A stretch of DNA of 24,000 nt. Origin: an uncultured archaeon. GTDB lineage: Archaea; Asgardarchaeota; Lokiarchaeia; Sigyniarchaeales; SOKP01. How positions within the stretch are numbered: the first letter of the stretch is position 1; each line of letters starts with the position of its first letter. Below are positions 1,797-10,091 of the stretch, piece after piece. Below the pieces are notes generated by a model, which was not told the origin of the DNA, did not search any database, and saw nothing but the letters and a program-made list of their open reading frames with translations. The DNA is taken from contig CAZOYD010000023.1 of assembly GCA_964583985.1 (NCBI GenBank), positions 18,887-42,886 on the forward strand, in the 5' to 3' direction. Both the position numbers and the translations under genes were made by a program.

Positions 1797-1842
1797 TAAA
1801 AAATTAAAAAATAATGGTTAAAACATTAACACCGAAACCATT
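1797..1842 (-). terminator. hairpin plus oligo-U tracts downstream of mvhD (putative operon terminator)
   Basis: The minus-strand RNA reads AAUGGUU-(16 nt)-AACCAUU (7-bp stem, plus coordinates 1813..1819/1836..1842). It is followed directly by AUUAUUUUUUAAUUUUUU. Oligo-T runs are the usual archaeal termination signal. Confidence 0.4.
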
Positions 1843-1846
1843 GCTT

Positions 1847-1897
1847 AATGATTAGTCTTCTTGTGACTACGGTTTTTTCACAAAAGTCATACTTATC
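1847..1897 (-). promoter_or_regulatory. candidate SECIS element (kink-turn/eukaryote-like layout) in the mvhD 3'UTR
   Basis: It begins 4 nt after the TAA stop of mvhD. The RNA reads GAUAAGU-AUGA-CUUUUGUGA-AAAAACCGUAG-UCACAAGAA-GA-CUAAUCAU. The upper helix is UUUUGUGA/UCACAAGA (8 bp including one G-U, plus one C.A mismatch). The apical loop opens with AAAAA. AUGA (1890..1887) faces GA (1857..1856), allowing tandem sheared G.A/A.G pairs. The lower helix (1890..1897 with 1854..1847) is AU-rich and imperfect. Folded by eye only. Confidence 0.45.
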
Positions 1898-1900
1898 GGT

Positions 1901-2371
1901 TTATTTCTTTTTTTTCCCTTTGACATCGTCCTTCTCTTTAATAGAGTCAGAAAGTCTCGTGGGATTGTTACCTAAATTTTCAATTACTTCTGAAATACGG
2001 GTCACTTCTTGTTGAAATCTTTGACCTTCTGCAGCACTACAGTGAAACATTTGGATTCGTTCTGGATTCAATCCCGCTGTTTTTAGGATCTCTTTGGTAT
2101 ATTCCACATTTTTCGCAGCAACGAGATTGCCAGTTTCATAATCACATTCACCTTCATATCATCCTGCGACAATAACTCCATTAGCTCCCTTTCCTATAGC
2201 CCTCATCATCAAACTTGGCGTGACTCTACCCGTACAATTGATTCTAATCGGTCTGATGGTTGCAGGATATTGTGCTCGGATGGTTCCAGCCATATCTCCT
2301 GCTCCATATCCTCATTTCCAACACATAAACGCAATAATCTTTACTTGATCTTTTACAGTCATATTTTTCAT
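1901..2371 (-). CDS. mvhD: MvhD/VhuD-type hydrogenase delta subunit (HdrA-associated [2Fe-2S] protein), selenoprotein with 2 in-frame UGA (Sec) codons
   Basis: The track lists only the C-terminal 68 aa (1901..2107). Extending in the same frame to ATG 2371..2369 gives 156 codons: MKNMTVKDQVKIIAFMCWK[U]GYGAGDMAGTIRAQYPATIRPIRINCTGRVTPSLMMRAIGKGANGVIVAG[U]YEGECDYETGNLVAAKNVEYTKEILKTAGLNPERIQMFHCSAAEG. The TGA codons are at 2314..2312 and 2161..2159. They fall where the family has Cys (F-x-C-x-W-C-x-Y-x-G-A-D and G-C-H-x-G-D-C-H-Y). The 6-nt gap to the hdrA stop reads AGAGGU, which is SD-like. Confidence 0.85.
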
Positions 2372-2377
2372 ACCTCT

Positions 2378-4348
2378 CTAAATTTCTTCAAGAATTGCAT
2401 CTATTTGAGATTCATATTGGGGTTCACGATAGTATCTAAGAGTAATAGCCTCAGAAGGACAATTAGACAAGCAAGACCCACATCCTCGACAGAGAATCTC
2501 ATCTACATCTGCACCGTCTGGTTTTAATGAAATCGCATTATAAGGACAATTTAATTCGCACAAACCACATTTTGCACATTTTTCCTTATCTACAGTAGCC
2601 CGAATCAGCATTATCCTGTATTTATCTTTTCCCATTATACGGCTTACTGATGACGCGGCAGCTCTTCCTTGGGAAATTGATTCTGAGATCGATTTAGGAC
2701 CTTGTGCTACTCCGGCTAATACAATACCAGGAATTTTTGTGTCAATTGGATTTAAACGTGAATGAAATTCCTTGAAAAAACCATCTTGACTATTTTCAAG
2801 CTTTAATAACTTTCCAATTTTCTCAACACCTTTTGCAGGCATCATTGCACAAGATAAAACCACTAAATCAAACTCGATTTCCTTTAAACCAGAACTTGAA
2901 AGAGTATTTTGCATTATCACTTTAAGATTATGGGTTTCTGGATCTTCATTAATTTTCGAAATATTCGTCCGGACGTATCTTATTCCTTCCTTCCTTGAAG
3001 CTGTATAATATTCTTCATAATCCTTCCCAGCTGCTCTAATATCCATGTATGCTACACTGATATCTGCATCGGGATAGTGTTGTTTGATTAATTTTGTATT
3101 CTTAATTGAAATCATACAACACACCCCAGCACTACAGTATGTTTGCTTATTTAAATCTCGGGATCCTACACATTGTATGAATAGTATGCGCTTTGGAGTC
3201 TTTCCATCTGATGGTCTGGCAAGATGTCCTACTGTCGGACCGTTAGGAGCAAGTAATCTTTCAAGTTTCATTTGAGTTATTACATTAGGATATACGTTAT
3301 AACCTAAATAACCCGTTTCAGGCTCATATTCATCCCAACCTGTCGCTACTATGATGGTGCCTACTTTGATTTCTATAATCTCATCTTCTTGATTAAAATC
3401 AATAGCGTTCACTTCACAAGCTTTTTCGCATAATCCACATTTGATACATCTACTCATATCAATTTGAGCTTTTGAGGGAACAGCTTGAGCAAATGACACG
3501 TAAATTGCCTTTCTAGTATTCATGCCTTCATTGAATTCATCGTATCCATAGGATGGACAAACTTCAAAACAAGCTCCACATCCATTACAATCGCTCTTTA
3601 CATACTTAGCTTTTTTTCTAATTTTCACATTAAAATTTCCAATGAATCCAGAAACATCTTCAACATTGCTGTAAGTATATAGGTTTAAATTGGGAGTTCG
3701 AGCTGCTTGAAGCATAACCGGACCGAGAATTCAAATGCTACAATCATCAGTAGGAAAAGTTCGATCGAGCATAGCCATCTTACCACCTATTGTAGGGCTT
3801 TTTTCCACGAGATGCACTTCAAATCCCTCATCGGATAAATCAATTCCAGCACTCAATCCAGAAACTCCGCCTCCAATTATTAAAGCCTTTTTTGTTATAT
3901 CAACTTCTTTTACAAGTATTTCTTCTAACAAACTGGCCCGAGCAACTCCAGATTTTATTGCATCTTCTGCGGTTTTTTGAGCCCCCACCTTATCTTGGCG
4001 ATGTACAAAACTTGCATGTTCTCGAATGTTAACAAATTCTAAAAACGAAGGATCAATATTCATAGATTCAAGAACGCTTTTGAAAACGGGTTCATGAGTT
4101 TTAGGAGTACATGATGCTACAACAAGGCGATTAGCGTTACTTTCATTCATTTTCTCTTTTATAAATTCCGCTCCTGGTTCAGTGCATAAACTGATATAAT
4201 CTGATGCATCAACCACATTAGGTAAGGTCTTGGCAAATTCAGCGAGTGCTTTAGTGTCAATGATTTCAGCAATATTAATTCCTCAAGCACAAACACTAAC
4301 AAAAATCCGTATTTCTTCAGTATTTTTTGTAATCTCTGCTTCTACCAT
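2378..4348 (-). CDS. hdrA: heterodisulfide reductase subunit A (HdrA), FAD/[4Fe-4S] flavoprotein, selenoprotein with 2 in-frame UGA (Sec) codons
   Basis: Track fragments 2378..3715 and 3731..4216, plus an unlisted N-terminus, join in one frame. The frame runs from ATG 4348..4346 through TGA 4285..4283 and TGA 3733..3731 to the TAG stop at 2380..2378, giving 656 codons. N-terminus: MVEAEITKNTEEIRIFVSVCA[U]GINIAEIID. The junction reads TFPTDDCSI[U]ILGPVMLQAA. The FAD motif is IIGGGVSGLSAG. Four CxxCxxCxxxC(P) ferredoxin motifs are present (CNGCGACFEVCP, CIKCGLCEKACE, CAKCGLCELNCP, CRGCGSCLSNCP). Confidence 0.9.
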
Positions 4349-4535
4349 TGCATATTCTACCTTTTTATTTTTTAGATATCCTCCTACATTAATTACATAA
4401 TATTTCAAAATATTTTTTACTTTTAAAATATCTTATGAGAAAAAATAATTTTAAATCAAAAATCTATTATATATCTTTTATAAGTTATCAATTTAAAAAT
4501 GGTTTGATATTAAAAAAAAATAATTCGTTTTAATA

Positions 4536-8659: not shown

Positions 8660-9118
8660 TCTAAAGTGATCATTAGTGACTTTCCAAGAAATATGAATTA
8701 GTATTAATATAATTAATGGTAGAAAAGATATGAATATAAATAATCCTATACTCGTTCAAGAGAATTAATTTATGGATTCGGAAACTTTAAGAAATTTATT
8801 TAATCGTGGTCAAAAACCAAATAATAAGAAAAATCATAAAAGCTAATTAGGAAACTATTATGGGAGAAAACAATTATTAGGGAGAATGGGCTCAAAATAA
8901 ATAATCAGATAGTAGCCTGTATATTTATATTGAAATAGATTTTAATCCTATTCCAATTTTATACTTTTCAGACATTCCTAATTCATTTACTCTTCTTAAT
9001 TGAATATATTTCTTTTATTTTATAAAATAAATTAACCTTTTATTTTGAATTATTATTCATAATATTTATAAGCTTTATTTTTCCTTAGTAATTATCAAAT
9101 AAGAGGATACTTCTTAAA

Positions 9119-9322
9119 ATGAATAAATTTCTTGATTTCGATAGGAAAAAGAATATCATATATTATAATATATTTTTAGATGAAAATGAAATCTTAATAA
9201 AAATTCCTCTAATTTCAAAATTGGACGAAAAAGGTCATTCAAAGGACGTATCTATTGAAAATTTTGATTTATTTAGCTATAATAATCATTTTTTATTTAA
9301 TTGTGACCATTATTACCAATAA
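9119..9322 (+). CDS. small hypothetical ORF
   Basis: 67-aa ORF in an AT-rich, low-coding region, with AAGAGGA 10-16 nt upstream of the ATG. No family recognised. The next ORF starts on the base after its TAA and is in the same frame. Confidence 0.3.
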   Translation: MNKFLDFDRKKNIIYYNIFLDENEILIKIPLISKLDEKGHSKDVSIENFDLFSYNNHFLFNCDHYYQ

Positions 9323-9499
9323 ATGAAAACTAATGAGGAATTAAAGATTAAAAGAAGATTAAGAAATAGCAATCAACCCAATACCCAAGAAATTCGATAT
9401 TGCTGTTTGGAAGGAGAGAATTTATTTTATGATAATATAGAATTAGAACATTTCACTAATGACATTAATTCGTCTCTTGTGAATATTGAGGAAAATTAG
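9323..9499 (+). CDS. small hypothetical ORF (58 aa), same frame as 9119..9322
   Basis: ATG 9323 abuts the TAA at 9320..9322. Translation: MKTNEELKIKRRLRNSNQPNTQEIRYCCLEGENLFYDNIELEHFTNDINSSLVNIEEN. It is below the ORF-track size cut-off. No family recognised. Confidence 0.25.
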   Translation: MKTNEELKIKRRLRNSNQPNTQEIRYCCLEGENLFYDNIELEHFTNDINSSLVNIEEN

Positions 9500-9776
9500 A
9501 ATTTTCTTTTTTAAAATTCAAATTCACGATAACTTCTGATTGAATTCTTGTCTAGAAAGTTAAGCCCGATGTTCCAATATCTTAAATAGCTCTAATAATC
9601 TTTCCGTATAATAGATAACTTATCATAAAGAGTAATTATTGATACTTGCCATTATGAATTACCTTGATTTAAATCCATTTAAAATTAAAATATTTAAATA
9701 GGATAATTCAATATATTATTATGAATGATTATTCAAATAATTATTCAATTATCCAAAATTTGAAAAGGAGATAAAT

Positions 9777-9968
9777 TTGAAAAGTTATCAAGAAATAATT
9801 AAAGGAGATACTTTTAATGAATCTGATGAGTATTTTGTAGAAACACACTTATCTAAAATGTGTTGGGGCTGTGAGACTAAACATAATTCAGGACACATGG
9901 TTTGGGATGCCTCTAAAATGCGTAGAATATTCTTTTGTGAAGATTGCTTTAAAAAAATGAAAAAATAA
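9777..9968 (+). CDS. small zinc-ribbon protein (CxxC...CxxC)
   Basis: 63 aa with CWGC (res 29-32) and CEDC (res 54-57), 21 residues between the two pairs. It has a TTG start, with a GGAG-containing SD (AAGGAGAT) ending 4 nt upstream. Confidence 0.5.
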   Translation: MKSYQEIIKGDTFNESDEYFVETHLSKMCWGCETKHNSGHMVWDASKMRRIFFCEDCFKKMKK

Positions 9969-10091
9969 TGCACTAACACTAAAATTAAACAAAAAATAAG
10001 AATTGGGGTTACTTTTACGTTAGTAAATGAAAGTCATGAAGATTATCTGAAAGCGATCTATCTAATTTCAAGACATAAAAAGGGAGGGTGG

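Follow-up and report, generated by a model that had tools for sequence, protein, structure and literature searches.

The hdrA-vhuD locus

The sequence analysed here, referred to as the window, is a stretch of 24,000 nucleotides (nt) from an uncultured archaeon of the Lokiarchaeia (Asgardarchaeota, Sigyniarchaeales, SOKP01; assembly GCA_964583985.1, contig CAZOYD010000023.1, positions 18,887 to 42,886). Its minus strand carries two adjacent genes, hdrA and vhuD, both interrupted by in-frame TGA codons and followed by an RNA element at 1903-1828 which is, with high probability, a selenocysteine insertion sequence (SECIS) of the type I, eukaryote-like kind described in Asgard archaea as lokiSECIS. 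The first gene encodes heterodisulfide reductase subunit A and occupies 2378-4348 (656 codons), with a TAG stop at 2380-2378 and a putative ATG start at 4348. Its first in-frame TGA (4283-4285; context VCA-U-GINIA, where U is selenocysteine, Sec) lies 2395 nt upstream of the AUGA core of the element, and the second (3731-3733; DDCSI-U-ILGP), at the canonical HdrA Sec position, lies 1843 nt upstream of it. When cysteine is read at the TGA codons, the product shows Pfam Fer4 (ferredoxin) and an FAD-binding pattern. With its extra Sec codon near the N-terminus, the window HdrA is one of the multi-Sec forms described for Lokiarchaeota.

The second gene, vhuD (also mvhD; FlpD family), begins 15 nt past hdrA and spans 1901-2362 (153 codons), ending with a TAA stop at 1903-1901. 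It contains TGA codons at 2314-2312 and 2161-2159, which sit 424 and 271 nt, respectively, upstream of the AUGA core, and its product with cysteine at these positions matches Pfam PF02662 (FlpD/MvhD) with E=1e-42. Both reading frames are broken by TGA alone.

A conserved RNA element follows vhuD

Orthologous loci were collected by a protein-anchored VhuD scan with one genome per species. The resulting 80 loci are labelled nearly all as Asgard (Promethearchaeota, Hodarch-, Hermodarch-, Thorarch- and Odinarchaeota) or as unclassified 'uncultured archaeon' metagenome-assembled genomes (MAGs), and their VhuD proteins are 69-94% identical to the window copy; the best match among the species representatives reaches 94% and none is identical. 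At all 80 loci the element is found directly downstream of a Sec-containing vhuD, with one copy cut by a contig end. The pairing and covariation statistics below derive from a MAFFT alignment of 79 of these sequences, 76 of them distinct, and a covariance model, R1, was trained on 78 orthologues from which the window sequence was excluded. R1 matches the window at 1903-1828 on the minus strand over its full length (73.5 bits, E=3.9e-16), the runner-up in the window scoring 12.3 bits. Both the motif search and the covariance model find a single such element in the window: its 24 kb contain one copy of the bare motif ATGA-N9-AAA-N7-G-N9-GA, versus 0.10 expected. A stricter motif with a base-pairing requirement has 66 matches in ~0.97 Mb (window and orthologous loci, both strands), and all 66 are downstream of vhuD.

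An earlier note on this DNA, made from the window sequence, had proposed a eukaryote-like SECIS candidate at 1847-1897 and had warned that a hairpin found by eye in AT-rich sequence might be a false positive. The folding z score of the single sequence is only -1.6, for a 61-nt as well as for the 76-nt RNA, and 9 of 100 shuffled sequences contain the bare motif one or more times, so that a hairpin arising by chance could be entertained from the window alone. However, the match to a model that had not seen the window (E ~4e-16), together with the presence of the element in 80 of 80 loci with compensatory changes in its stems, refutes this explanation, whose remaining probability we regard as negligible.

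The Sec codons are as constant as the element. TGA stands at position 68 of VhuD in all 80 loci and at position 17 in each of the 79 whose match includes it (in L080 the match starts at residue 18). Stop codons of the two genes are used differently. Among the 79 loci with an hdrA C-terminus, hdrA ends with TAG in 45 and with TAA in 34, never with TGA, whereas vhuD ends with TGA in 17 of 79 loci, each time overlapping or directly preceding the AUGA of the SECIS. This usage agrees with the published idea that a minimum distance between UGA and SECIS is needed for recoding. The absence of TGA stops in hdrA (0/79) is only moderately significant because such stops are rare in these sequences in general (14 of 220 long frames).

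Two observations concern individual loci of the set. In L062, a weak second match to the model (24 bits) is located ~0.9 kb downstream of the true element, at 4409-4486 on the plus strand. It retains hairpin 3 (described below) and the UCGG half of the closing helix (AAUCAUUAAGUACUGGUUUCGGU), has a degenerate upper stem and is preceded by no selenoprotein open reading frame (ORF); it may be a decayed duplicate. L054 (JAWODV010000081.1) is a 4.2-kb contig that carries the MAG label Kosmotogaceae bacterium. Its Sec-vhuD, 73% identical, is of Asgard type and has a full lokiSECIS; this contig was probably mis-binned.

Core, upper stem and apical loop

Read from the vhuD stop codon, the RNA is UAA ACCGA UAAGU AUGA C UUUUGUGA AAAAACCGUAG UCACAAGA A GA CUA AUCAUU AAGC AAUGGU U UCGG UGUU. 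The complete conserved element, as delimited by the full-length R1 match, measures 76 nt (1828-1903, minus strand). Its AUGA (1890-1887) starts 10 nt past the stop and is followed by helix II, in which C1886 stands unpaired opposite A1858 and UUUUGUGA (1885-1878) forms 8 pairs, one of them U.G, with UCACAAGA (1866-1859); the 5' arm thus covers 1878-1886 and the 3' arm 1858-1866. Between the arms lies the apical loop AAAAACCGUAG (1867-1877) of 11 nt, and directly after the 3' arm comes GAC (1857-1855), which includes the GA of the core. The earlier note had described these same parts on the minus strand (the AUGA, the C.A mismatch with 8 pairs, the A-rich 11-nt loop and the GA at 1857-1856), and all of them are found at exactly these positions. 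The AG that closes the loop, a further feature of lokiSECIS, had gone unmentioned.

Conservation across the orthologues is concentrated in the unpaired nucleotides, while the stem varies. In the segment 1887-1891, composed of U1891-A1890-U1889 followed by G1888 and A1887, the U, G and A of the AUGA core are invariant and its first A nearly so: AUGA precedes the stem in 77 of 79 orthologues by one count, with GUGA in 2, and GUGA is recorded for L057, L058 and L076. GA and the following C are present in 79/79 sequences. In the loop, A3-A5 and the last G are invariant, the length is 11 nt in 72/79 orthologues and AG ends the loop in 72/79. By contrast, 8 of the 9 pairs of helix II vary on both sides among the 76 distinct orthologues with 89.9% of cells paired; one pair, for example, is GC in 32 sequences, UA in 20, AU in 17, GU in 4 and CG in 2. 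The first position of helix II is non-standard in 31 of the 76 sequences, consistent with the 3b.3n position of a kink-turn (K-turn). G1888.A1856 and A1887.G1857 are putative sheared pairs, and the kink-turn core that the earlier note had drawn from them gains support at the level of sequence from the invariance of the GA/GA nucleotides.

A predicted three-way junction below the core

The lower part of the element differs from what had been expected. The span 1847-1897 was exact for the upper part, but the true element is larger, 1903-1828, and the AU-rich lower helix that had been placed below the core (1897-1891 with 1855-1847) is not what is conserved. Instead, the comparative data delineate a 76-nt junction of three helices, as predicted from the aligned sequences. 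The first consists of the pairs next to the core (5' side 1892-1893), G1892-C1855 and A1893-U1854. All 76 distinct sequences have G-C at G1892-C1855; its neighbour is AU in 34, UA in 11, UG in 5, GC in 1 and something else in 25. Owing to the G1892-C1855 pair, exactly three nucleotides (U1891, A1890, U1889) remain unpaired before G1888/A1887. The layout is that of a canonical K-turn, with a canonical (C) stem, a 3-nt bulge (N-A-U), tandem G.A/A.G and a non-canonical (NC) stem, from which a kinked geometry and protein binding may be predicted.

The second component, hairpin 3 (1837-1852), pairs AUCAUU (1852-1847) with AAUGGU (1842-1837) across an AAGC loop (1846-1843) in which G1844 is invariant; 84.6% of its cells are paired, with AU/UA/CG exchanges. 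The third is the closing helix, helix I, in which CCGA (1896-1899) pairs with UCGG (1835-1832). Of its cells 99.7% are paired, and the variants recorded are a GCGA/UCGC double change in L064 and a G.U in L047. CCGA falls within the coding part of vhuD in 54 loci and within the untranslated region (UTR) in 25, and all three reading frames are represented. Since CCGA is kept in coding sequence or UTR and in every frame, the constraint acts on the RNA.

Taken as a whole, the structure has 90.5% of its cells paired, compared with 30-50% after a shift of the partners by 1-3 columns. Its covariation score is 0.367 versus 0.155 in shuffled alignments, and none of 500 shuffles reaches the observed value. 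Helices I and II and hairpin 3 are also predicted, independently, by RNAalifold. Thus, the orthologous 3' UTRs conserve the element with compensatory changes.

A lokiSECIS with the two-helix, eukaryote-style fold, in which the AU-rich lower helix (1897-1891/1855-1847) replaces hairpin 3 and CCGA/UCGG, appears improbable in view of these numbers. Its pairs can be drawn in the window, the minimum free energy (MFE) fold of the 61-nt RNA contains a short lower helix, and the Asgard models, as far as the published descriptions go, depict a simple lower stem with an internal loop. However, across the 76 distinct orthologues only 31% of the cells in that helix are paired and RNAalifold does not predict it. 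Moreover, its 3' strand overlaps hairpin 3, of which it would take up the 5' arm, and that hairpin is 85% paired and covarying.

The same architecture downstream of other UGA-containing genes

A metagenome search with the pattern ATGA-N8-A-N2-AAA-N3-TAGT-N8-GAC and a pairing filter for helix II returned 43 elements. The genes in front of them are vhuD of the window type, divergent paralogues of vhuD and members of several further ORF families that contain in-frame TGA; in the scans made, the element is exclusive to UGA-containing ORFs. A G two nucleotides before AUGA, which is outside the search pattern, is present in 42 of the 43. A strict geometric parse (a hairpin 0-4 nt past GAC, then a flanking helix of at least 4 bp) succeeds for 32/43 (74%) versus 18% with shuffled flanks. 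A constrained-fold control for the three-way junction proved too permissive (72% of real versus 47% of shuffled sequences), and the geometric parse was used instead. The closing helix takes different forms by family, namely CCGA/UCGG, ACUCC/GGAGU, CCCC/GGGG, CUAG/CUAG, UCUGA/UCAGA and AAAGCA/UGCUUU. When 44 elements are aligned by fitting to the model, compensatory changes appear in each of the four helices, in hairpin 3 at 5 of 5 pairs, and 91% of cells are paired versus 61% in shuffled and 34-50% in slid alignments. This multi-family alignment is supporting evidence and not proof. The fuller consensus has two sources, the 80 protein-anchored loci and the 44 pattern-anchored elements.

The distribution across families bears on two further explanations. 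The first sees the element as a transcript 3'-end structure, a terminator or stabilising stem-loop, with no part in UGA recoding. The operon-end location is in keeping with this, as is a U-rich tract, UUAUUUUUUAAUUUUUU (1798-1814, minus strand), which begins ~15 nt past the element and is a possible archaeal oligo-U termination signal, judged by its composition. On the other hand, no U-run directly follows the stem, a scan for bacterial-type promoters and terminators returned no relevant site, the most conserved positions are the unpaired AUGA, the AAA and G of the loop and GAC, and the motif occurs solely after UGA-containing ORFs of several unrelated families. We therefore give this explanation very little credence.

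The second explanation takes the element for a K-turn protein site, bound for example by L7Ae, that regulates translation or stability of the hdrA-vhuD mRNA, with UGA decoding directed otherwise, e.g. by bacterial-like local hairpins. All canonical K-turn sequence hallmarks are present and a heterologous test of a Loki SECIS failed (see below), which would fit such a role. Against it, an in-frame UGA is the sole property common to at least five unrelated ORF families that carry the element, hdrA avoids UGA stops, and a published RNAz screen detected no other conserved structure in these genes. Likewise, R1 finds nothing else in the window, where no scan was aimed at bacterial-type hairpins beside the UGAs. 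A purely regulatory K-turn is thus most unlikely, only marginally less so than a 3'-end structure.

Several of the families that precede these elements are of interest in themselves. Divergent VhuD/FlpD paralogues (FACLK-U-GYSAADLAGVSR...; Pfam FlpD E=5e-43) occur at L121, L122, L148, L164, L172 and L203, as well as at L127 and L179. They share the SECIS core and hairpin 3 with the window and differ in the closing helix (ACUCC/GGAGU, CCCC/GGGG, UCCGGA/UUCGGA), and thus provide natural compensatory variants of helix I.

A second family consists of Asgard proteins of ~150-170 aa with two adjacent in-frame TGAs (...HAD-U-U-AD... or ...DSGC-U-U-EKV...), every gene having a lokiSECIS after it. The SECIS positions, each directly downstream of its ORF, are L107:4940(+), L108:4083(+), L123:1906 and 2605(+), L126:285(+), L165:1217(-), L174:4936(-), L178:1993(-), L181:5126(+), L187:1854(+), L191:9798(-) and L204:1316(+). 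In-frame conservation continues past the TGAs (R.D...K...G...F.HYF), and the corresponding gene calls in databases either stop short at ...GC or, under genetic code 4, read WW. Among 84 hits, all of them annotated as 'hypothetical protein' from Asgard MAGs, none is a Cys-Cys homologue. The family has no Pfam match, and a fold search with an AlphaFold model (pLDDT 82) returned weak beta-grasp similarity alone (TM score at most 0.35). It is absent from the archaeal selenoprotein lists in the available text of Mariotti et al. 2016, Huang et al. 2024 and a 2026 review (11 families).

Small ORFs with a single transmembrane segment (~70-90 aa) have a Gly-rich motif at the C-terminus (GGSU, GGGGSU, EGGU, GGPGU) that contains one in-frame TGA. 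A lokiSECIS that includes the three-way junction comes after each of them, at L085:2434(+), L115:1125(+), L131:9036(+) and L133:873(+). This family, too, is missing from the published lists of Asgard selenoproteins. Finally, zinc-ribbon-like ORFs of ~75 aa (CPHCGH...CQGCN...HG-U-x-U-VFCTYGDVP-U-L) contain three or four in-frame TGAs and yield only sub-threshold Pfam zinc-ribbon matches. Each lies beside a gene of the double-TGA family and possesses its own lokiSECIS (L146:550(+), L174:5240(-)). A SECIS-first search with the fuller model yields candidate Asgard selenoprotein families outside the published lists.

Proposed function and the evidence against it

We consider it highly probable that 1903-1828 acts as an Asgard lokiSECIS in the 3' UTR of a bicistronic hdrA-vhuD mRNA. 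In the mechanism that we propose, the RNA would fold as a K-turn (G1892-C1855, bulge U-A-U, tandem G.A/A.G, a stem of 9 positions and an A-rich loop of 11 nt) set within a three-way junction with hairpin 1852-1837 and the CCGA/UCGG closing helix. The folded element would recruit the archaeal Sec-specific elongation factor with Sec-tRNA(Sec), either directly or via a K-turn-binding adaptor. According to the literature, the SBP2 gene is absent from every Asgard genome; for this reason, L7Ae-family proteins are the obvious candidates for such an adaptor. The four UGAs 271, 424, 1843 and 2395 nt upstream, distributed over two cistrons, would then be decoded as selenocysteine, while the genuine stops (UAG of hdrA, UAA of vhuD) would terminate normally.

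More tentatively, we suggest that Asgard type I SECIS elements in general are K-turn three-way junctions of ~75 nt, in which the G-C pair with its 3-nt bulge, the hairpin with a G(C) loop and the closing helix are possible determinants for a SECIS-binding factor; this generalisation is a working proposal, to which we would assign somewhat less than an even chance. The ~76 nt define a minimal RNA for binding or reporter work. With a sharper RNA model and predicted binding of the L7Ae type, SECIS recognition in archaea that lack SBP2, and the origin of the eukaryotic system, become somewhat more testable.

A number of results weigh against this interpretation or temper it. Searched with Rfam cmscan at gathering thresholds, the whole window yielded no match, and a scan of 1600-2000 at E<=10 gave chance matches alone (Srn266, SNORD108). 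Of the covariance models applied, the Loki-type model R1 recognises the element with its 73.5 bits, but the Rfam SECIS models do not. The folding signal of the single sequence is weak, as the z score given above indicates, and the MFE structure of the 76-nt RNA (-14.4 kcal/mol) has another inner fold, the three-way fold reaching -12.3 to -13.0 kcal/mol in ViennaRNA. By these calculations the predicted three-way fold is near-optimal, although ViennaRNA gives the G.A pairs no credit. Helix I is near-invariant among the vhuD orthologues, where its pairing rests on the single double change; firmer support for it is supplied by the other gene families in the model-fitted alignment. That alignment, however, leans towards the structure, and its A-U closing pair, like the C of GAC, was already prescribed in the search pattern. 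The orthologues are phylogenetically related, for which reason the shuffle controls overstate significance. Lastly, a lokiarchaeal vhuU.2 SECIS placed in a Methanococcus maripaludis reporter gave 21 mU/mg versus 22 mU/mg without a SECIS (PMC11881835), a negative result that is compatible with a different trans-acting factor.

Other features of the window

A tRNA scan of the window found no tRNA-Sec, and by Pfam the neighbouring genes are housekeeping genes, without Sec machinery. A region of 1.4 kb between a metallophosphoesterase gene and an iron-dependent-repressor gene (8660-10091) holds short ORFs only (<=67 aa), no tRNA and no Rfam match.

Comparison with known systems

The closest relative of the window element is lokiSECIS as reported by Mariotti et al. 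2016 (PMC4989117). In that account AUGA is followed by a stem of 9 bp whose loop of 11 nt opens with five A, and GA comes after the stem; the last G of the loop is ultraconserved and preceded by A. The element adjoins the stop codon, and hdrA and vhuD share one copy, located downstream of vhuD; hdrA always ends with UAA or UAG. For the Asgard type I class as a whole, AA is accepted in place of the GA. The window matches every published feature (PMC4989117, PMC11227280), including the shared element, the multi-Sec HdrA and an hdrA ending UAG/UAA, which agrees with the statement of the earlier note that the candidate fits the published claim of eukaryote-like SECIS elements in Lokiarchaeota. Mariotti et al. 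also searched Loki genes with covariance models for archaeal, eukaryotic and bacterial SECIS and report no match, so that the lack of an Rfam match in the window is expected. The element is therefore a further copy of an already published kind in its known gene context. The published key region is no different; what the window adds are the invariant G-C pair with its 3-nt bulge, hairpin 3 with its invariant loop G, and the CCGA/UCGG helix.

The model of Huang et al. 2024 (PMC11227280) comprises the core, an upper stem of 7-15 bp in which up to 2 mismatches are allowed, and an apical loop of 8-20 nt. The available text states that no lower-stem nucleotides are conserved across families, and gives family-specific lower-stem pairs for frhA and selD, not for hdrA/frhD. 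No second hairpin or junction is mentioned in the available text of Mariotti et al. 2016 or Huang et al. 2024, whose figures or supplements may draw them, and a literature search for SECIS with 'three-way junction' returned nothing relevant. The three-way-junction model is thus a modest refinement of uncertain novelty.

Eukaryotic SECIS elements of form 1 have in common with the window element the AUGA...GA core, unpaired A residues at the start of the loop, the 3' UTR site and distant and multiple UGAs. They differ in that the upper stem is shorter in the window (9 positions), as was noted for lokiSECIS (PMC4989117), in the missing Rfam match at E<=10, and in the hairpin on the 3' side of what would be the 'internal loop'. 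For all its likeness to the eukaryotic family, the window element falls outside it.

In comparison with the methanogen-type eaSECIS, the window lacks the GAA_A bulge and the G-C clamps. A script with Huang 2024 eaSECIS-like constraints found 0 candidates on the minus strand of 1691-1910, so that the element is of the AUGA/apical-A/GA type, as the earlier note held, and not of the Methanococcus GAA_A type. The VhuD SECIS of Methanococcales and Methanopyrus, described as a GAA_A type that also has AUGA, GAC/AAC and an extra stem, shares with the window the gene, the AUGA opposite GAC and the extra basal stem.

With canonical K-turns (Kt-7, box C/D RUGAUGA/CUGA) the element shares the Watson-Crick pair, the 3-nt bulge, G.A/A.G and an often non-Watson-Crick first helix position. 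Its nearest structural analogue, by predicted topology, is the k-junction of the thiamine pyrophosphate (TPP) riboswitch (Wang et al. 2014, PMC4005666), whose non-bulged strand accommodates a third helix. That helix is inserted directly opposite the loop, whereas hairpin 3 of the window, likewise on the non-bulged strand, would emerge 3 nt past the A of GA, after one to three pairs of the C-stem.

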